A stretch of DNA of 64,000 nt from NCBI GenBank assembly GCA_009777835.1, contig WRKZ01000001.1:23696-87695 (forward strand), read 5' to 3'. The notes under the pieces were generated by a model that was not told the DNA's origin, did not search any database, and was given only the letters and a program-made list of their open reading frames with translations. Within the stretch, counting starts at the first letter, position 1. Each line of letters begins with the position of its first letter. This DNA comes from Oscillospiraceae bacterium. GTDB lineage: Bacteria > Bacillota > Clostridia > Oscillospirales > Ruminococcaceae. Below, one piece after another: positions 2,474 to 51,815 of the stretch. Both the position numbers and the translations under genes were made by a program.

Positions 2474-5400
2474 CTAGATTTCCAGCAACGCGCCGATGAA
2501 AATCGGTGTATTTGTCGTGTTATCAACAATCGCGAAGACGAATGGGCGGTTCAAGTCAACCTGTTTTGGTGTCAGTGACCAATCCCAAGCGTCCACGACC
2601 ACCGTTGTTACTGCCGCCGCTTTCGTGCCGGATTCATCTACTTCGATAAAAGTCTTGTGAAAAACGCCGCCGATATAGATGTTTCCATCCGGGGAGAGTG
2701 CTGTGCCGAGTTTCGAGAAGTCTGCATCGCGTTCATTGAATGCGGTAGACATTCCCATAGCTTTCAGAATATCGTTGAGTTCTATATCATATTCAAACGT
2801 GAATTTCGGCAGGAAGGTAATCAAGCCTTCTGACGGAGTTCTTGCCGACTTGAGTGCCTTGGTGATACCTTCCCCGCTCATGCTCTCGATATAGTCTTCG
2901 ATGCTTATCCCCTCATTCGGAAGGAATGCCGCAAAGGAATAGTGTCCGCCGGCATAATCTTTGGTGAAGCCGGTCGCATTTTCGGTTTGGAAGTATTTCA
3001 TGTCCTTTTGGTCGATTGCCAACATAAAGTCAACGTTTTGTTTGCTTCCGTCGGCTTTGGTGAAGTCACGTTTAATGACATCCTTCTCTTCATACTGTGA
3101 TTCCCAGGTCGAATCAAAAGCGATTGCGTTAATCAGGAACATAATGGTCAGTGGGTCGATTTCTTCCTCAGGGTTGAGGATTTCGTTAATCATGCCTTGG
3201 GTGCTTTGCGAAACCCATTCGTTAATGTCGGTGATTGCTTGGCTATCGAACGCCGACGGTTTAATCAGGGCGTTATAGAAAAGCTCATTCGTTTTAAGGA
3301 AGGCTTCCTTTATCGTGAAAATCTTCGGGGTTTCTCTGTACCAAATCGAGTTGGCGATTTCCAGTTTAGAACCCTCCACACTCGGCAATCCCGCTACATA
3401 TGCCGATAAAGCTTCGTTGAGTTGTGCGAGGCTTAATCCGCGTCCGAGTACGGCTTCCATCTCGGAAAGGGTCGTTCCGTCTGCTCCGTTAGCCGTCATA
3501 GCTAATGCAAGCAGAATCGACAGCGGCGAAACCAGATTGTTTTCGTCTGATTTTTCGGCAAAGCTCTTTTTGAATACATCAACCGTTAAATCTGCGAGTG
3601 CCGGCGCGAATTCGCTGTGCTGTTCGTACAAAAACGGTGCGGGTGCAGGCTCTTCAATCGGTTCTTTTGGTTCGGGTGCAGGGGTCGAAACGACGGTTCC
3701 GTTCAGCCCCAACGCCCCGCTTTGGGTGAAGTCTTTCAGCGACATTGAAACGACCGAATTGTTCGAAACAGCGTACGCATAATCGCCGATATACAGTCCG
3801 CGCTTGAATTCCGTTTGAGAGCCTTGGGTGTTGCTTAAAATTTCACCGAGCAGCGTGAATCCGTTTTCGGAATCATACGAAAGGAACGCAAATCCCGAAA
3901 CCTGCCCGCCCGTGGCGGATTTAATGTATGGGAAGCCGATGATATTCTTCTCCGGTACAACAAGAACCGATTTATGCTCACTTTCAAATGGGCTGCTATA
4001 GTAAGCGTAGGAACCGTTGTTTGTGTTGTTGGTGAGTTGATAAACGTCCAATTCGTTCAGCTCTTCGCCGTCTGCTACGTCAAACATGGTGATTTTAAGC
4101 CCCATGCGGACTCCGTTATCGTCGGTATCAACCCCGAAACCGAGGAGCAATCCCTCTTCGGAATCCCATTGGTGCAGATAGCGTGAGAAACCGGGAATCT
4201 TCAGTTCGCCCAGAAGAACAGGGTTAGTGGGTTCGCTTAAATCGAACGCAAACAACGGGTCGGTCTGCCAGAAAGTCACGATGTAGCCGCGGTCGCCGAT
4301 GAATCGTACCGAGTGAACGCTCTCGCCGAACCCGATTCGGTGAACCTCCGCCAAAATGTTCATACCTTCGTCAAATGTGTACAACGTTCCGCCCTGGAGT
4401 CCGTACATTTCGTCGAAATCAATCGGTACAAACGTCCGCATTGCCCAGTAAGTTCCTTGCAGACTTTCGGGAATGGGCAGAATGGTTGTGTTTTCCGATT
4501 GTTCGGGGCCTTTACCCCAAATTTCGGTCACTACCCGGAGGATGCCTTCGTGTTCGTCTAAATTGAACTGGTTGCGAATGTTCCCCTTGACCCTGCCTTG
4601 GGCGACGTATTCGATTTCGCCCGAGTCAAACGAAAACTTGTCGATGGTGGTGAAGTTTTCGTAGTTGCCGCTCCACCAACCCCATCTCCACCAGAGGTTG
4701 CTTTCGCTTCTTGTGATGTAGATGTTTTCGAGGGACGCATAAATGGTCTGAACCGAGCCGAGGTTCGCCATTACCGATACGGGGAGTTCTTCCCGCTCAA
4801 CGTCAAGCCCGCCGATTACCGTGTAGGAAATGTGGTCGAGTTCTTCCGGGAGGATGATTGATTTCCCGGGAACAATACAGCGTTCCCCGTTTGAGGTGTA
4901 GGAAGGAACGTATTCTTCAAGATTTTTGAATCCCAAACTGTCGGAGGTTGCCAGAATTTTCAGCGAAGGCGTGTAGTTGGAAATGAGGTATACGTTATTT
5001 TCCGACATTCTTGACGAGTGATATTGCCCCTTCTGCGAATAAGACGAGAGCGGCGCAGAGAAATCTCCGGCGGTATCGTACACATCCACGAATACTTCAT
5101 GCTCAAAATAAGAGATGTTGGAGGTGTAGGTCTTCCCGTTGTAGTCGTATTCGGTGGGGATTACGGTAAGGTCATGTCTGCCCCAAATCACGACCAGTTT
5201 GCCCTCATAAAGCAACATTTCATGGAGTTGGACAGCATCTTCGGGGAGGTTGATTTTAGCCTTGAGATTCATATCCCCGTTGTCGGTTTCGATAACGTTC
5301 ACGCCGATACCTTCGGAGGTGAATTTGTGTGCCGTTTCGTTATATCTGAGTGTCCCCGGCGCGACCACGTAGATGTTTTTTCCGTCGGTCTTGACTATGT

Positions 5401-5929
5401 CACCTTCTTGAATCCCTTCAACCTGGTTGTTCGTTCCGGAAAAGTCGAGTTCCGGGGTAGGGTTGCCGTCACTCCATGGGATAGAGTTGGTGGGTACTAC
5501 GAGATTACGAATTTCTCCCAAGTGCGAGTCATCCCAAAGATTCCCGCCCATTTGATGATTCCAGCCTTCAGCTTGAGTGAGTTCGTTAATCATGCGATAC
5601 AGTGTGACGTAATCGACATCGGTGTCCATTTTCGCCAACCACATCAGAATAATCAGTACGTCATCGATGGTGATTTTACCATCGAAGTTTAGGTCGAGGC
5701 GTTGTGACTCTTCCTCCGAAAGTGTGCGCATCTTCGCGAGATGTTTGAGGATTTCCAGTGCGTCGCCTATGGTGTAGGCGGCAGTTCCCGACGAGTTGCC
5801 GGAATTGACGGATTCGGTCGTTTCGGCTTCCGAAATCGAAACCGCCCCGGTTGTAAAGAGCGTGGTGAACAATAAACTCAAGCAGACAAGCAGTGCGGTG
5901 AGTTTCCTTCTTACTTTTTGTTGAAACAT
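2474..5929 (-). CDS. Secreted dockerin / beta-propeller (Beta_propel, COG4880-like) / serpin fusion protein
   Basis: Signal peptide; dockerin-like TIGDALEILKHLAKM and DLNFDGKITIDDVL; FSGTNNQVEGIQEGDIVKTDGKNIY and DPLFAFDLSEP propeller motifs; serpin SPLSI, INEWVSQST, EVDESGTKAAA hinge and NRPFVFAI. Confidence 0.88.
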   Translation of the reverse strand: MFQQKVRRKLTALLVCLSLLFTTLFTTGAVSISEAETTESVNSGNSSGTAAYTIGDALEILKHLAKMRTLSEEESQRLDLNFDGKITIDDVLIILMWLAKMDTDVDYVTLYRMINELTQAEGWNHQMGGNLWDDSHLGEIRNLVVPTNSIPWSDGNPTPELDFSGTNNQVEGIQEGDIVKTDGKNIYVVAPGTLRYNETAHKFTSEGIGVNVIETDNGDMNLKAKINLPEDAVQLHEMLLYEGKLVVIWGRHDLTVIPTEYDYNGKTYTSNISYFEHEVFVDVYDTAGDFSAPLSSYSQKGQYHSSRMSENNVYLISNYTPSLKILATSDSLGFKNLEEYVPSYTSNGERCIVPGKSIILPEELDHISYTVIGGLDVEREELPVSVMANLGSVQTIYASLENIYITRSESNLWWRWGWWSGNYENFTTIDKFSFDSGEIEYVAQGRVKGNIRNQFNLDEHEGILRVVTEIWGKGPEQSENTTILPIPESLQGTYWAMRTFVPIDFDEMYGLQGGTLYTFDEGMNILAEVHRIGFGESVHSVRFIGDRGYIVTFWQTDPLFAFDLSEPTNPVLLGELKIPGFSRYLHQWDSEEGLLLGFGVDTDDNGVRMGLKITMFDVADGEELNELDVYQLTNNTNNGSYAYYSSPFESEHKSVLVVPEKNIIGFPYIKSATGGQVSGFAFLSYDSENGFTLLGEILSNTQGSQTEFKRGLYIGDYAYAVSNNSVVSMSLKDFTQSGALGLNGTVVSTPAPEPKEPIEEPAPAPFLYEQHSEFAPALADLTVDVFKKSFAEKSDENNLVSPLSILLALAMTANGADGTTLSEMEAVLGRGLSLAQLNEALSAYVAGLPSVEGSKLEIANSIWYRETPKIFTIKEAFLKTNELFYNALIKPSAFDSQAITDINEWVSQSTQGMINEILNPEEEIDPLTIMFLINAIAFDSTWESQYEEKDVIKRDFTKADGSKQNVDFMLAIDQKDMKYFQTENATGFTKDYAGGHYSFAAFLPNEGISIEDYIESMSGEGITKALKSARTPSEGLITFLPKFTFEYDIELNDILKAMGMSTAFNERDADFSKLGTALSPDGNIYIGGVFHKTFIEVDESGTKAAAVTTVVVDAWDWSLTPKQVDLNRPFVFAIVDNTTNTPIFIGALLEI

Positions 5930-44783: not shown

Positions 44784-45015
44784 AGAATGGGGGATTCTCC
44801 CCCAAACCCCCTGTCGCTTCGCAGGGAAACCCTGCTTCGCTCCCTAAAGAATGGGGCTTCGCCCCAAACCCCCTCACCTGCGGAGGCAGAGCCGCCTTGG
44901 TTCCCTAAAGAATGGGGGATTCTCCCCCAAACCCCCTGTCGCTTCGCAGGGAAACCCTGCTTCGCTCCCTAAAGAATGGGGGCTTCGCCCCAAACCCCCT
45001 GTCGCTTCGCTCCCT
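44784..45015. repeat. Repeat family C: BIME-like mosaic of four palindromic units
   Basis: Units of 64, 61, 64 and about 43 bp at 44784, 44848, 44909 and 44973, each agaatgggg-hairpin-cccaaaccccct; units 1 and 3 identical. Confidence 0.92.
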
Positions 45016-45051
45016 TTAACAGTAATCCCCCCGTTTCCGAGGGGACGATGA

Positions 45052-45449: not shown

Positions 45450-45478
45450 TTGACAAACTCATGAAAATGATGTATACT
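45450..45478 (+). promoter_or_regulatory. Sigma-A promoter for the 1272-aa surface protein, with a ~190-nt leader
   Basis: TTGACA-N17-TATACT. Confidence 0.8.
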
Positions 45479-45674: not shown

Positions 45675-48600
45675 ATGAGAAAAAGAAGATTGCTTGCAAT
45701 CCTCGTGACTGTGTCGATGGTGTTATCACTGTTTACCATGTTTACGAGTGCAAGCGACGCTGTTCGTGACACTGTAACCCGTGAATGGGGCTATGTGAAC
45801 GAATATGAATACGAAATCGATGTCAAAGTTGATTTCGGCGGCAACGTTGCTTTTGCTGTTGGCGATAAGGTAAACCTTAGTGCCGTTGATGCTGATAGTT
45901 TCGTTGCTGAAAAAGCTGACTCCTCTCCTAAAGCATTTACGGTCAGCGGCGCAAAAATTAGCGGAAACAACCGCACACAGGAAATTGCTACCGATTCTTT
46001 CGGTTGGGAAGTTTTCACTGTTGTCGGTACTGCTAATGACAGAATTACCGCGGGAAGCCGTTCTTCTCTTACTTTCACCTTAGTTGGTAAGTTCGAGGCC
46101 GACCTTTACAACGGTACTTACGAAGTGGATGACATCCAGATTGTTGATGATTTCTTTGCTCAACTCGTTCTCGGTGAATCCCCTGAAGAAGAAGAAATCG
46201 ATTTCGTGTACGCTGAAGACGATGACGGCATTGATGAAATCATTTTCGTTACCGATGTACGTGCAACCGCTACCAAAGTTGCTCTTGAAGACGTTGTTGA
46301 CAATGGGTCGGATTTCATCGGTAACTCTGACCTCGGTCTGTACGGCGATTACGGTGATGGAATCTTCACCCTTAAAATGAAAGGGATTGAATGGGACGAA
46401 GCACCTTTCATTTTCGGTGCTGACGCTGTAGTTCTTGACCTTGATTTCGTTGGACGTAACTTAGGAAATTCCGGGAATAGTGACCCTAACTACGACTTAC
46501 TCGTATGGACTGACATTTTCGAACTTGCTAATGCTGATGATAACGGCGACTTCGATATTGAAGAGTTCATTGATGAAGTTGTGAGAGTACGTATTCCTAA
46601 ACCTGCAAATGCAAACGCAAACCTCGGAACACTTAGTGCAGAACTCCCTGTTGATTATCTTTACTGCGAAAGCGATGATGACGGCTACGAACAAGTAGAA
46701 GAAATCTACTTTGCTGTTGTAAATCGTGTAGCTAAAAAAGATGATACTTGGGCAACCGTGGTTATCGAAGACGTTCTCGGTGAAGATACCCCGGACTCTG
46801 CAGAAAACCAACTGTTCGGTGCTACCCTCACTATCGAAGGTGAGTACCTGCTCATCGGCGTTCCTGAAGGCGAAGGCGAAGTTACCCGCTCTTACGGATA
46901 CGTAAATGAGTACGAATACGAAATTGATGTAAAAATCGATTTCGGTGGAGAAGTATTTTTCGCTGTCTCTGACGCGGTTGAACTCGACGGCGGATTTAAT
47001 GCCGCAGTTGCTGAAGAACTTGCTACTCTGGAAGCTACAATGGCTGTCGAAACCGCTGCTTATGATGCCGCTTCGGCATCTGAAGAAACCGTTACTAGCG
47101 TTATGACTTCGGCTTCTACGGATGAGTCTTCCGCTAGAACCGCTGCGACATCCGCTTCTAACGCTGCTGCCGATGCTAGCGCATCTCTCGTTTCGGAATC
47201 GGTTGCTGGTAATAATACTTCTGCTTTTTCTAGTGCTTACGCTAGTGCACTCGTTGATGTCGCATCGGCAGAAGCTGCTGTAGCCTCTGCTTCCAGTGCG
47301 TACTCAAGTGCTTCGGTGGCTAGTGACTCTCTGGACGTTGCTATGACCAGTGCTTCTACCGCATACGATAATGCTTCTTCCAGTGCAAGCTCCATCGAAG
47401 ACGAAGCTGACCGTGTTTTCGTAGTTGCTGCTGACGAAGACGAAAACGAATTCGAACTGACTGTAAGTGCTGTTAGAATCAGCGGAAACAGCCGTATGCA
47501 ACCTGCTGACAACACTGACCAGCTTGGTAGTGCTGACGCAAGAGAAAAAGGATTTGAATGGGATGTTGCCAGTGCTGTGGGTACACGTAATGACAGACTC
47601 ACCGCAGGAAACCGTTCTTATCTGACTTTCACTTTAATCGGTAATTTTGATTTAGACCTCTACAATGACGGATTTGACGTAGATAGCATCAAAATCGCTG
47701 AAGGATTCTTGGCTACCATTATATTTGATGAGGATTCATCGGAAACCCCATTCAAGTATAACAAAAATGTAAATGGTATTGATGACATCATCTCTGTATC
47801 GGCTGTTCGCAAGACCGGCGAAAAAGTTGCCCTTGATGACGTTGTTCTTTCTAAGGCTTCGAACACGAACAATGCAGGCGCATTCGACCTTACCGACGGT
47901 GTTACGACCCTTGAATTAGGTAGAATTCTGTTCAATGAAGCACCGTTCATCTTCGGTGCGGAATCCATTGTCCTTGACCTTGAATTCACAGAAAGAAACC
48001 TGAAGAACTTCAATACGGGCGATGATAACTATGACTTGCTCGTTTGGACTGATTTGTTTGAAGACGAAAACACAGAAGAAGGCGACACTTTTGACGTAAT
48101 GGATTTCCTTGGTGATGTTGTTAGATTCCGTATTCCGAGACCTTCTAACGCTAACACTAACCTCGGCGTTCTCAGCGTTGAACTTCCTGCTGAATTCTTC
48201 TCGAACGCAGACTTTAAACGCGCAAGCAAAATTTACTTCGCTGTAATTAACCGGGTTGTTGGGGAAAATGACACATTCGTTGATGTTGTTATCGAAGATG
48301 TTGTAGACGGAACCGACAACGCTCTCTGGGGCGCATCTCTCACCATTGAAGGTGAAGCTATTCGTCCTACAGTTCCTGTCAAAGAAAACTACGTTATCGA
48401 TGACATTTCCGAAAAAATCGGCGAAGACGGCAAAGTTGATTTAGCTGAATTAATCGCTGAAATCGGGGCAAACTACGACAAGGTTATACTTTCTGAAGAA
48501 GGCTTACTCGCTCTCGAAGAAGATTTGACCGTAGTTGTAGCAGAAGGAATCGAATACACGATTCTGGTAGACTCCATCGATGAAGACGCGATTGCTGAAG

Positions 48601-49493
48601 GATTCGTATTGAATTTCTCGGTAGTCAGCGAAAACTACGCAATCGAAGGATACTCCTTCGCAGAAGGCTCACTCGTGATTCTTCCCGGCGAAGTTGGCGA
48701 ATTCGGACTTGACATTGAACTGTTCGTATCGGCAGAACTCCTCGGCGAACTTGACGCAGCAGACATCAATCTGTACTATGTTTCCGGCGCGACTGTTTCT
48801 CTCATCAAAGACGGCGTTGAAGTCGTAGTTGAAGCTTGTGAAGAAGCAGAAGAAGACGAAGAGCATGATTGCGAAGAAGAAGAATGTGAACTCGCTGTTC
48901 TCGGCGTAAAAGTCGTACTCAGCAAAGCAAGCTTCTACGTACTCGCTGACGCTGCTCCTCAAGTAGAAGGTGACGTAACTGATACTACCACTTCTGACAC
49001 CGAAACCGAACCGACCGAAACCGAACCGACCGAAACCGAAACTTCGGCAACTGAAACCGAAACTTCGGGAACCGACACTTCCGTAAGCACTACTTCGGGA
49101 ACCGACACTTCCGTAAGCACTACTTCGGGAACTTCCGGAAGCAATGACGTTAACACTTCGGACACTTCGGACACTTCGGACACTTCCGGAACTGCTACTT
49201 CTGTAAGCGAATCCGATACTGAAGCTACTTCGGAAACTTCTGAAATTATTGAAGAAGGCTACAAAGTAGGTGACGTTAACGGTGACGAACAGATTACGAT
49301 TGCTGACGCACTCGAAATTCTGAAGTACTTGGCGAAAATGACGAGTACCCTCGACACAGAAGAAGGTCTTGAAGCGGGAAGAATCCTCGGCGCAACCGTA
49401 CCGGGAATCGGCGATGTTCTTGAAATCCTCAAATACCTCGCGAAAATGAACAACGCACTCGTTGATAATCACGATTGGGCACCCAGGGCGTAA
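45675..49493 (+). CDS. Large acidic secreted dockerin protein, candidate S-layer/major surface protein
   Basis: Signal peptide; duplicated ~370-aa unit; Ala/Ser insert; beta-rich domain ending ASFYVL; T/S/E linker; C-terminal GDVNGDEQITIADALEILKYLAKM dockerin. Confidence 0.8.
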   Translation: MRKRRLLAILVTVSMVLSLFTMFTSASDAVRDTVTREWGYVNEYEYEIDVKVDFGGNVAFAVGDKVNLSAVDADSFVAEKADSSPKAFTVSGAKISGNNRTQEIATDSFGWEVFTVVGTANDRITAGSRSSLTFTLVGKFEADLYNGTYEVDDIQIVDDFFAQLVLGESPEEEEIDFVYAEDDDGIDEIIFVTDVRATATKVALEDVVDNGSDFIGNSDLGLYGDYGDGIFTLKMKGIEWDEAPFIFGADAVVLDLDFVGRNLGNSGNSDPNYDLLVWTDIFELANADDNGDFDIEEFIDEVVRVRIPKPANANANLGTLSAELPVDYLYCESDDDGYEQVEEIYFAVVNRVAKKDDTWATVVIEDVLGEDTPDSAENQLFGATLTIEGEYLLIGVPEGEGEVTRSYGYVNEYEYEIDVKIDFGGEVFFAVSDAVELDGGFNAAVAEELATLEATMAVETAAYDAASASEETVTSVMTSASTDESSARTAATSASNAAADASASLVSESVAGNNTSAFSSAYASALVDVASAEAAVASASSAYSSASVASDSLDVAMTSASTAYDNASSSASSIEDEADRVFVVAADEDENEFELTVSAVRISGNSRMQPADNTDQLGSADAREKGFEWDVASAVGTRNDRLTAGNRSYLTFTLIGNFDLDLYNDGFDVDSIKIAEGFLATIIFDEDSSETPFKYNKNVNGIDDIISVSAVRKTGEKVALDDVVLSKASNTNNAGAFDLTDGVTTLELGRILFNEAPFIFGAESIVLDLEFTERNLKNFNTGDDNYDLLVWTDLFEDENTEEGDTFDVMDFLGDVVRFRIPRPSNANTNLGVLSVELPAEFFSNADFKRASKIYFAVINRVVGENDTFVDVVIEDVVDGTDNALWGASLTIEGEAIRPTVPVKENYVIDDISEKIGEDGKVDLAELIAEIGANYDKVILSEEGLLALEEDLTVVVAEGIEYTILVDSIDEDAIAEGFVLNFSVVSENYAIEGYSFAEGSLVILPGEVGEFGLDIELFVSAELLGELDAADINLYYVSGATVSLIKDGVEVVVEACEEAEEDEEHDCEEEECELAVLGVKVVLSKASFYVLADAAPQVEGDVTDTTTSDTETEPTETEPTETETSATETETSGTDTSVSTTSGTDTSVSTTSGTSGSNDVNTSDTSDTSDTSGTATSVSESDTEATSETSEIIEEGYKVGDVNGDEQITIADALEILKYLAKMTSTLDTEEGLEAGRILGATVPGIGDVLEILKYLAKMNNALVDNHDWAPRA
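49000..49200 (+). repeat. Nested short tandem repeats encoding the Thr/Ser/Glu linker
   Basis: 30-bp unit at 49062 and 49092; gaaaccgaaccgacc x2; acttcggac repeats. Confidence 0.85.
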
Positions 49494-49609: not shown

Positions 49610-50326
49610 ATGAAAAAAATGGTAAAACTCATGTCAATAATCGTAGCTATCGCTATGATTGCTTCTCTCGCAGTTAGCGCATCCGCTTCTGCAGGCACTC
49701 CGAACACTGCCGGAGAAAAAGGAATCGTATTCGGTTTCGTAAACAATGACCCGACTAAGTTGGCACTTATCGTTCCGGACGGCGGAACTACCGGTATTGC
49801 CGGTTGGGGATTCGTTGACATCAAAATCGTTCCTCCTGCAGGCGGAACCATCAATGCACGTCCGTCAGCTGCTGACGAAGACCTTGACATCACTAACACC
49901 CCCGGTTCCAGCGTAGTTGAAGGCACCTACGGCGGCGGCGTTGTATTCCCTGAATTTTTTGCAGGCGGATTCGTTGTTGCAACTTGGAACGTAACCGGAA
50001 CCGGCGACTTCGTAATCACCGGTGACTACACTTATGACCCTGAAGGCGCTGATAATGAAGATTTCACATTGAACCTTACCGTAAGCAACGTATTCGGAAG
50101 CACCGAAACTACCGTTGCAACTCAAGAAACCGCTGCACCTACCGAAACAACTGAAGGCGGAACTGAAGAAGGAACTCAAGCAACTGCAGCTCCTACCGCA
50201 GCTCCTACCGCTGCTGCTACCACCACTTCGGGAACCACTCCTAAAGGCGGCGTAGCTCTCGCAATCATTCCTACTTTGGCAGCTGCCGGCGCAGCAGTCT
50301 TCGCAGCTTCCAGAAAAAGGAAGTAA
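49610..50326 (+). CDS. Sortase-signal surface protein with a ~135-aa beta domain (candidate cohesin/anchoring scaffoldin)
   Basis: Signal peptide, beta-strand domain, T/A/E linker, TPKGG-hydrophobic-RKRK tail; the cohesin call is a loose pattern match only. Confidence 0.65.
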   Translation: MKKMVKLMSIIVAIAMIASLAVSASASAGTPNTAGEKGIVFGFVNNDPTKLALIVPDGGTTGIAGWGFVDIKIVPPAGGTINARPSAADEDLDITNTPGSSVVEGTYGGGVVFPEFFAGGFVVATWNVTGTGDFVITGDYTYDPEGADNEDFTLNLTVSNVFGSTETTVATQETAAPTETTEGGTEEGTQATAAPTAAPTAAATTTSGTTPKGGVALAIIPTLAAAGAAVFAASRKRK

Positions 50327-50442
50327 GACTAACCTAATGTCAAGGCTTTGACATTGCAAACAGGTAATATGCGGGCGGTAGATTAGCTCTGCTGCCCGCT
50401 TTTACAACTAAAATTAGAGGGAAAATCTGGAGGAATACTAAC

Positions 50443-50718
50443 ATGAAATTGAGAAAAGTTTCTTCACTCGTGATTGCTATCGCTATGGCGGCTACTATGG
50501 CTGCAGCAGCAAGTGCGAGCGAAAACGAAACCGAAACCACTGCTGAAGAAACCACCGCTGCAACTGCTGCTACGACTGCAGCAACTACTGCCGGTGGAAC
50601 TGTTGCAGGTGGGGACAAAGACGGCGACCTCAAAACAGGTGTCGGCGGCGTGGCTATCCTCGGTGGAGTCGCTGTTATGGCGGCAGGTGCCGTTATAGTC
50701 GCGAAAAAGAGAAAGTAA
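50443..50718 (+). CDS. Minimal sortase-signal protein (Thr/Ala/Glu-rich mature peptide of about 40 aa)
   Basis: SD ggagg; signal peptide; DLKTG-hydrophobic-KKRK tail. Confidence 0.82.
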   Translation: MKLRKVSSLVIAIAMAATMAAAASASENETETTAEETTAATAATTAATTAGGTVAGGDKDGDLKTGVGGVAILGGVAVMAAGAVIVAKKRK

Positions 50719-50733
50719 TCGCATCACGCGATG

Positions 50734-50768
50734 AACGACGCCGGGATTTTTCCGGCGTCGTTTTATTG
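50734..50768 (+). terminator. Intrinsic terminator closing the surface-protein operon
   Basis: aacgacgccgg/ccggcgtcgtt stem followed by ttatt. Confidence 0.8.
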
Positions 50769-50772
50769 AAGA

Positions 50773-50858
50773 TAAGGGTGTAATACCCGCCCATTGGGGC
50801 AGTTCTCTCGCCCGTAGGGCGAGGGGTGCAGGGCTTGCCCTGCGGTGTTAGCTTACAT
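50773..50858. repeat. Repeat family B, copy 2
   Basis: Highly similar to 28741-28827. Confidence 0.85.
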
Positions 50859-51090
50859 TTGGCGAAATTTGTATGAATCTGCCGACACGATTTTGGGAAA
50901 AGTATATTGAAGCAATCCTTATTCCTATATTTAGAAGCGTTGAGAATTTTCGTGAAAAATAACCAAAAATTCACCTAAAATTTTGGTTATTTTGCCTATT
51001 GAAAATTTCTTAAATTTATATTATAGTATAAGGGTAAGCATTTGCGGCTGTTCGGCTGCAAAAACAAAAAAATTTGGAGGAAATAATCGC

Positions 51091-51759
51091 ATGAAATTAA
51101 GGAAAATTCTATCGTTAGTCGTGGCAATCGTCATGATTAGCACTCTCGCAATTTCCGCAGGCGCGGTTTGGACAGTTCCGATTGAATCGGCACCGAGTGG
51201 ATACGACGTACAGTTCCATGTAGCGGGCTCTTCGGTAAGACCCAGAACCGATGCAATCAACTACGAACTTATCAGGGGCGTAAGATGGACGTTCGAACTC
51301 ACCGAAACCGATTACGGTGTAGACGAAAATGGTGTTCCCGGGGATTTCGTTGTGGTTAGTGCCGGTTGGAACTGCGGACCTACTGGCTGGCAACAACAAG
51401 ATTTCAATTACCCGGCACAAAAAAGCTACACGGTTGACCTTAGTCAACACGCTTGGGTTCCCGCACCTGAAGGTCAAGAAGGCGGCACGGGAATCGACTG
51501 GTTGGAGGTTTCTGCAGCAGTATTCTCCGACCTTACGTGTAAAGGAACGGTTAAAATCGAAATCCTCGGGCCGAACAACGTTGTTCTTTCCAGAGGACAG
51601 CAGGAACTCGCAACTACGAGTACCGGCACTACTGCTACCGGCAACACCAACAATTCCGAACTTAAAACCGGCGTTGACGGCGTGGCGATTCTTGGCGGCG
51701 TAGCGATTCTCGCGGCAGGTGCAGTAATTGTTACCGGCAAAAGAAGAAAATCTCGCTAA
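51091..51759 (+). CDS. Sortase-signal surface protein with a Trp-containing beta-sandwich (CBM-like) domain
   Basis: SD ggagg; signal peptide; WNCGPTGWQQQDF; ELKTG-hydrophobic-KRRK tail. Confidence 0.8.
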   Translation: MKLRKILSLVVAIVMISTLAISAGAVWTVPIESAPSGYDVQFHVAGSSVRPRTDAINYELIRGVRWTFELTETDYGVDENGVPGDFVVVSAGWNCGPTGWQQQDFNYPAQKSYTVDLSQHAWVPAPEGQEGGTGIDWLEVSAAVFSDLTCKGTVKIEILGPNNVVLSRGQQELATTSTGTTATGNTNNSELKTGVDGVAILGGVAILAAGAVIVTGKRRKSR

Positions 51760-51781: not shown

Positions 51782-51815
51782 AAAAAATACCGCTTGAATA
51801 AGGCGGTATTTTTTT
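51782..51815 (+). terminator. Intrinsic terminator
   Basis: aaaaaataccgc/gcggtatttttt. Confidence 0.8.

Follow-up and report, generated by a model that had tools for sequence, protein, structure and literature searches.

In a 64,000-nucleotide (nt) stretch from an Oscillospiraceae bacterium (assembly GCA_009777835.1, contig WRKZ01000001.1, positions 23,696 to 87,695 of the forward strand; hereafter the window), one open reading frame (ORF) encodes a secreted protein of 1272 amino acids (aa) in which a module of ~370 aa without relatives in the searched family databases is repeated in tandem, and the second copy (unit B) is interrupted by an Ala/Ser-rich insert that is missing from the first (unit A). 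The insert has a defined place and size, a distant homologue carries an insert at the same site, the gene is transcribed, and the protein ends in a dockerin-like module. We infer, in addition, a helical fold for the insert, a binding function for the protein and a partner for its anchoring. The explanation that we favour, and to which we give about an even chance, is that this is a secreted, acidic, non-catalytic binding protein on the surface of an uncultured termite-gut bacterium, where it is tethered through its dockerin and combines a tandem pair of all-beta modules with a nested helical insert. As for the insert, it most likely amounts to a small structural elaboration, and no new mechanism is suggested by these results.

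Tandem duplication of the module and the insert in its second copy

The original prediction, made from the letters of the window, was that this ORF contains a duplicated 369-aa unit, and this is confirmed by sequence motifs, by protein alignment and by the spacing of repeated DNA blocks. Every motif that had been quoted is present twice, at the positions given for it, for example GYVNEYEYEIDVK at aa 39 and aa 408 (window positions 45789 and 46896), EAPFIFGA at aa 242 and aa 755, and NYDLLVWTD at aa 272 and aa 785. Units A and B share 46% identity over 335 columns (BLASTP, E 2e-91), with a further 46% identity across an N-terminal segment of ~40 residues (E 2e-14); this similarity is far above chance. 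At the DNA level, blocks that precede the insert recur at a distance of 1107 nt, which is exactly 369 codons, whereas blocks that follow it recur at 1521-1554 nt (~1539), and unit B therefore holds ~432 nt (144 codons) more than unit A. The end of unit B, placed here at about aa 903 (window position 48383), nearly coincides with the position 48390 proposed earlier.

The extra codons correspond to the Ala/Ser-rich stretch of ~140 aa that had been expected at about 47000-47400 in unit B and that is found as aa 440-583 (~144 aa). In the AlphaFold2 (AF2) model of unit B, it follows strand 3 (unit residues 31-35) and precedes strand 4 (180-183). A count over 145 aa gives 41 Ala, 33 Ser, 14 Val, 12 Thr, 11 Glu, 9 Asp and only 2 Gly, with neither Pro nor Lys, and the tetrapeptide A-G-N-N lies in its middle, at aa 511-514. 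The insert is native in origin: its codons are used as in the remainder of the gene, with each of the six Ser codons represented, and neither tandem nor dispersed DNA repeats were detected within 46992-47423 by Tandem Repeats Finder (TRF) and repeat finding. Recent slippage or a foreign origin was rejected on the basis of codon usage. An origin like that of the serine-rich repeat proteins (SRRPs) was likewise rejected, because a Ser-x signal of period 2 does not exceed that of shuffled sequences (p = 0.27) and tandem DNA repeats are absent.

It had also been proposed that the insert is antigenically variable, and this found no support. The insert is the same in P0002, which is the same gene in another assembly, and in two termite-gut RNA runs, a very small sample that probably derives from one study; metatranscriptome contigs from the two runs cover 46880-47096 and 47158-47480 without differences, indels or joints, with 47097-47157 uncovered, and none of the DNA runs contains the insert. 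The suggested comparison of insert length between strains thus gave no variation in this sample, and it is the linker near the C-terminus that varies instead. A 30-nt unit of the linker, encoding TSGTDTSVST (49062-49091), is missing from P0002, which differs from the 1272-aa protein (P0001) by this one 10-aa repeat, and from one metatranscriptome contig. Given an identical insert and a linker that is polymorphic in length, the variable element is therefore the linker and not the insert.

The orphan module, its relatives and its predicted fold

Neither the units nor the insert match any Pfam family up to E = 10, and the same holds for the third, acidic domain that follows unit B. NCBIfam (E<=0.1) gave no match to units A and B, the insert or the third domain, a sequence search of the PDB gave none to the units or the third domain, and searches of the PDB with profiles built from two and from five units returned nothing at E<=10. 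Word-indexed homologue searches with unit A, the full-length alignment and unit A of P0003 retrieved only the queries, and scans of genome and metagenome contigs with patterns from the five-unit alignment found no relative. An exhaustive hidden Markov model (HMM) search of 1.84 billion cluster representatives with a profile built on both units yielded four proteins, P0002, P0003, P0004 and P0005. As P0002 is the same gene, and P0004 was rejected as a repeat protein that matches over a 30-aa stretch only, P0003 and P0005 are the only two other true clusters. P0003 (1287 aa, ~28% identical) has the same architecture, is the sole full-length homologue and is almost the same at its N-terminus. P0005 (764 aa) contains one unit, Cys-rich repeats and a dockerin, and therefore the module can stand singly and in other architectures. 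About four of these Cys-rich repeats, with an 'ALGHD' motif, lie between the unit and the dockerin (locus L003, 47-2341). At least one of the three metagenomic proteins with the module comes from a termite-gut Oscillospiraceae bacterium. On the evidence of sequence comparison, the ~370-aa unit is a previously undescribed domain family, whereas the protein that contains it is of a well-known type, the dockerin-borne modular surface protein. In addition, several metatranscriptome contigs match the signal-peptide start (45697-45700) or the dockerin (49305) and then diverge; other transcripts of the community appear to share these termini, which suggests that secreted dockerin proteins of this kind form a larger family, one that did not show up in the protein databases.

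Five units can be aligned (A and B of P0001, A and B of P0003, and that of P0005). Among the positions that never vary, in unit A numbering, are Arg2, Gly5, Tyr12, Phe20-Gly21, Glu208, Trp244 and Asp246, along with those of the motifs E-A-P...G and V-W-T-D and a number of Pro and Gly. The invariant motifs NEAPF[IV]FG, VWTD, DFG and LxFTLxG may form a conserved ligand-binding surface. Outside the insert, both AF2 models are all-beta, with ~20 strands arranged in two sub-domains, and unit A is modelled as two such beta-rich sub-domains. In Foldseek searches, neither model matched the PDB, and unit A did not match BFVD, at E<1e-3. The weak best matches of unit A are pilins, fimbrial adhesins, lectins and jelly-roll or LamG-type folds, with no hydrolase among them, and the best of these has an E of 0.022 and a template modelling (TM) score of 0.17-0.20. 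The models thus suggest a binding or structural beta-sandwich module. In sequence, profile and Foldseek searches, the unit matches no known enzyme, and sequence, profile and structure comparisons link it to no known family of carbohydrate-binding modules (CBMs) or carbohydrate-active enzymes.

The site of the insert is shared with P0003. The distance from DFG to LxFTLxG is 79, 82 and 84 aa in the insert-free units (unit A of P0001, unit A of P0003 and P0005, respectively), as against 228 aa in unit B of P0001 and 179 aa in unit B of P0003. In the latter, the same loop holds an unrelated insert of ~100 aa, which contains Cys, Trp and Gly and resembles ordinary globular sequence. Homology of the two inserts was rejected, as their Smith-Waterman score falls below the shuffle mean (z = -1) and the BLAST E is 0.86. 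Two histories are conceivable, namely an ancestral nested domain whose descendants are no longer recognisable as related, or two separate fillings of the loop. Under either, the full-length architecture includes a nested domain between beta3 and beta4 of its unit B. A bolder and rather unlikely reading is that the 370-aa module, as found in three metagenomic proteins, is a new, lineage-specific ligand-binding fold family in which this loop of unit B acts as a dedicated 'cassette' site for domains that are unrelated from one lineage to another, an Ala/Ser helical bundle here and a ~100-aa Cys/Trp-rich domain in P0003. If it were true, the dockerin-tethered surface layer would possess a built-in route to diversify its partner or ligand specificity.

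Proposed tethering, genomic setting and alternative explanations

The layout of the protein and the features around its gene are collected in Table 1. The protein is strongly acidic (262 Asp and Glu vs. 69 Lys and Arg). Its third domain is kept in P0003 and missing from P0005, and it includes a Cys cluster, CEEAEEDEEHDCEEEECE (aa 1054-1071, 48834-48887), whose counterpart in P0003 is CEDDDCEEAEECECE and which may be a metal or disulfide site.

Table 1. Features of the 1272-aa protein, its gene and the genes downstream (positions are those of the window)
Feature	Positions	Strand	Residues	Basis or remark
Sigma-70-like promoter TTGACA-17-TATACT	45450..45478	+		11/12 matches, ~190 nt upstream of the start codon
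ORF, secreted, modular, dockerin-bearing	45675..49493	+	1272 aa	
Sec-type signal peptide MRKRRLLAILVTVSMVLSLFTMFTSAS	45675..45755	+	aa 1-27	direct sequence reading
Unit A, all-beta orphan module	45777..46883	+	aa 35-403 (369 aa)	BLASTP, AF2 model
Unit B, copy of unit A plus insert	46884..48383	+	aa 404-903 (500 aa)	BLASTP, alignment, AF2
Ala/Ser-rich insert	46992..47423	+	aa 440-583 (144 aa)	between beta-strands 3 and 4 of unit B
Predicted helix 1	47001..47111	+	aa 443-479	DSSP on AF2 model, low confidence
Predicted helix 2	47124..47204	+	aa 484-510	DSSP on AF2 model
GNN, central helix break	47208..47216	+	aa 512-514	sequence, AF2 model
Predicted helix 3	47217..47297	+	aa 515-541	DSSP on AF2 model
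Predicted helix 4	47310..47405	+	aa 546-577	DSSP on AF2 model
Third acidic domain, Cys/Glu cluster	48384..48959	+	aa 904-1095	alignment with homologues
Thr/Ser/Glu/Asp linker, tandem DNA repeats	48960..49244	+	aa 1096-1190	repeat finding
Divergent dockerin	49245..49490	+	aa 1191-1272	PF00404 near-threshold match, PDB dockerin matches, DNA repeat D19
Three small genes, each with signal peptide and C-terminal anchor	49610-50326, 50443-50718, 50983-51759 (49610..51759)	+		

By its sequence, the C-terminal module is dockerin-like but atypical. In a sequence search of the PDB, dockerins make up the three best matches and the majority of the top ten (E 0.014-0.8); one of them, R. bromii Amy12, matches over both repeats. 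The first repeat, consisting of DVNGDEQITIAD and the helix ALEILKYLAKM, has the canonical calcium loop DxNxDxxxxxxD, and the second keeps the helix as VLEILKYLAKM, within DNA repeat D19. Elsewhere in the window, a 1151-aa ORF (2474-5929, minus strand) combines an N-terminal dockerin-like segment (aa 54-94) with a beta-propeller (PF09826, E 2e-125) and, at its C-terminus, a serpin (PF00079, E 8e-88); this organism therefore puts dockerins on non-enzymes.

The three small genes downstream are probably co-transcribed with the dockerin gene; the first strong plus-strand terminator after the ORF lies at 51782-51814, with none before 51782. Their products have no Pfam matches, and one of them weakly matches Rumino_NPXTG (E 0.0016). 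At the P0003 locus, the next gene likewise encodes a small protein (L001, 5783-6518) with a signal peptide, stalk and anchor and with the same AIIPxLxAAGAA...R/K C-terminal tail. The small genes at both loci share a plan of signal peptide, short beta domain or none, Thr/Pro/Glu stalk, hydrophobic anchor and basic tail. Such synteny of a dockerin gene with a small anchored gene suggests a functional pair, and the downstream anchored proteins are candidate surface receptors for the dockerin.

Contigs without mismatches in three metatranscriptomes show that the gene is transcribed, and in none of them is the insert bypassed by a joint. These runs come from termite guts, and the PPDK encoded in the window shares 81% identity with its counterpart in a termite-gut Oscillospiraceae metagenome-assembled genome (MAG). 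In the 190-nt leader, no Rfam family, and hence no riboswitch, was found at E<=1. Farther upstream, between divergent operons, an array of GC-rich hairpins on the minus strand (44850-45050), each followed by TTCTTTAGG, weakly matches the Clostridiales-2 RNA of Rfam (21 bits vs. a gathering threshold of 58.6, E 0.036).

In the favoured explanation, the C-terminal dockerin would tether the protein to a cell-bound partner, most plausibly one of the small anchored proteins whose genes follow directly, and the tandem pair of ~370-aa all-beta modules would be its working, ligand-binding part. The insert would fold into an antiparallel four-helix bundle with helices of ~27-37 residues and an Ala-rich core, and, projecting from the beta-sandwich, it would equip unit B with an additional face, absent from unit A, for contact with partners or for self-association. 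A number of results weigh against this explanation. No ligand or partner of the protein has been identified, and no Pfam Cohesin match was found in the downstream proteins even at E<=10. The C-terminus scores 21.6 bits against PF00404, below the gathering cut-off of 22.9 (E 2.6e-4), and over the first repeat only; the loop of the second repeat, GATVPGIGD, is degenerate and has no Asp/Asn ligands, so that one calcium loop is present in place of the two of type I dockerins. The invariant Glu and Asp of the units leave room for a catalytic role. As regards the fold, the AF2 input alignment had 5 rows, which makes the insert in effect a single-sequence prediction, and confidence is low for both models (mean predicted local distance difference test score, pLDDT, of 58 for unit B and 57 for unit A; predicted TM score, pTM, of 0.45 for both), falling to a pLDDT of 38-57 in the insert. 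Low-complexity sequence rich in Ala is also readily modelled as helix by AF2. With regard to heptad or hendecad stripes, single residue classes of the insert do show periodicities that favour a helical fold, at 3.5 residues for large hydrophobics (p about 0.006) and for Ser/Thr (p about 0.007) and at 3.67 for Ala (the observed value was reached in 0/1000 shuffles), but these are uncorrected for ~35 tests, and the overall Kyte-Doolittle amphipathic power in the 3.3-3.8 band was not significant (150/2000 shuffles, p = 0.075).

Several of these observations would be expected if the insert were a disordered, low-complexity Ala/Ser/Thr loop, possibly O-glycosylated, that would serve as a flexible and hydrated spacer or shield against proteases, an alternative that we regard as possible though fairly unlikely. 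The low pLDDT of the insert and the lack of significant overall hydropathy periodicity agree with it, as do the composition (Ala, Ser and Thr make up 59% of residues, and Ser and Thr 31%) and the fact that the sole sequence relative in the PDB is a chance-level match to an Ala/Ser-rich aciniform silk (E 3.2). Moreover, linkers of cellulosomal proteins are often O-glycosylated. However, no Pro and two Gly in ~140 aa are atypical of bacterial disordered linkers, and the linker of this very protein provides an internal contrast: it is rich in Thr, Ser, Glu, Gly and Pro, encoded by repeats and polymorphic in length, and falls on the disordered side of a charge-hydropathy (Uversky) plot, whereas the insert has none of these properties and falls on the folded side. 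The class-wise periodicities of 3.5-3.67 and the absence of a period-2 Ser-x signal also speak against disorder. If the insert is helical, as the favoured explanation has it, its model contains four helices separated by three breaks (aa 480-483, 511-514 with the GNN, and 542-545), and the Foldseek matches that it drives fall into two groups, four-helix bundles of ~130 aa (target TM score, TMt, 0.43-0.51) and the long alpha-hairpins of MacA and EmrA (E 0.02-0.4, TM 0.1-0.2). The original prediction had envisaged a projecting helical hairpin; a helical, loop-borne element is indeed plausible, but four helices and matches to four-helix bundles do not favour a single long hairpin. That the insert is one long antiparallel coiled-coil hairpin, by which copies of the protein would oligomerise into a surface lattice, thus seems improbable. 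The central GNN break does split the insert into roughly equal halves, the top Foldseek matches include the hairpins just mentioned, and a small-residue (Ala/Ser) core suits tightly packed antiparallel helices of the 'Alacoil' type, but the two further breaks yield four helices, and the TM scores are higher for bundles than for hairpin proteins. On balance, a nested helical bundle can be proposed with moderate confidence, and a single long hairpin is less likely.

A different kind of alternative concerns the units themselves, which might be a new enzyme (such as a glycoside hydrolase, a lyase or an esterase that attacks lignocellulose) in a cellulosome-like complex, in whose second catalytic copy the insert would be a lid or substrate guide. 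Enzymes are the most frequent cargo of dockerins, the habitat is the termite gut, and Glu208, Asp246, Trp244, Arg2 and Tyr12 are invariant in the five known units. Nonetheless, an enzyme is improbable, since Pfam, NCBIfam and the PDB offer no family match by sequence or profile, and the top Foldseek folds are adhesins, pilins, lectins and jelly-rolls, none significant and none hydrolases. The tandem duplication at 46% identity, the extreme acidity and the operon with small anchored proteins suit a structural or binding protein better.

The surface proteins of fibre-associated Clostridia of wood-feeding termites, hosts that depend on these bacteria, are almost entirely uncharacterised. This gives interest to a module that curated databases do not contain and that forms only three clusters in a set of about 15 billion predicted proteins. 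Should its ligand come from the plant cell wall or the host, the module would represent a new binding family of biotechnological interest, and pairing of the dockerin with the mini-proteins encoded next to it would point to a non-canonical, cohesin-poor display system.

Comparison with known systems

The insert resembles in composition the Ala/Ser helical-bundle units of aciniform spider silk (PDB 9lif), its sole sequence match in the PDB (~120 residues). Aciniform silk is an example of Ala/Ser-rich, Pro-poor sequence that is able to form a stable helical bundle. At E 3.2, however, the resemblance is compositional only and indicates no evolutionary link, and organism and context are entirely different. 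The serine-rich repeat (SRR) glycoproteins Fap1 and GspB are likewise Ser/Ala-rich surface proteins, and one report (PMC2952246) describes the non-repeat region of Fap1 as a helical bundle together with a beta-sandwich. In contrast to these glycoproteins, the insert is only ~140 aa long and lies inside a folded domain, with no stalk, and it does not show the Ser-x or SAS[TE]SAS arrays, encoded by tandem DNA repeats, that mark SRRP repeat regions.

Gram-positive pilins, MSCRAMM adhesins and chaperone-usher fimbrial adhesins, whose folds are Ig-like or beta-sandwich, are also surface proteins with tandem beta-rich modules, and the adhesin-type Foldseek matches of unit A (E 0.02-0.6) include the group B Streptococcus (GBS) pilus 2b backbone, MyfA/PsaA, CsuE, CupB6, F17G and the N2 domain of Cnm. 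None of these matches is significant (TM <= 0.31), and the tether here is a dockerin and not a sortase signal: no LPXTG with a transmembrane segment and no pilin motif occur in the 1272-aa protein, whose C-terminus is the dockerin.

Parallels are also provided by the dockerin-bearing non-catalytic proteins of the cellulosome or amylosome systems of Ruminococcus and other Clostridia, such as the dockerin-serpins, and by the dockerins of R. bromii Amy12 and Amy16. Compared with those proteins, the body modules here fall outside all described families, the calcium-loop residues are missing from dockerin repeat 2, no cohesin was detected nearby, and no carbohydrate-active enzyme module is present; the layout itself, in which a signal peptide is followed by a modular body, a Thr/Ser linker and a C-terminal dockerin, is alike.

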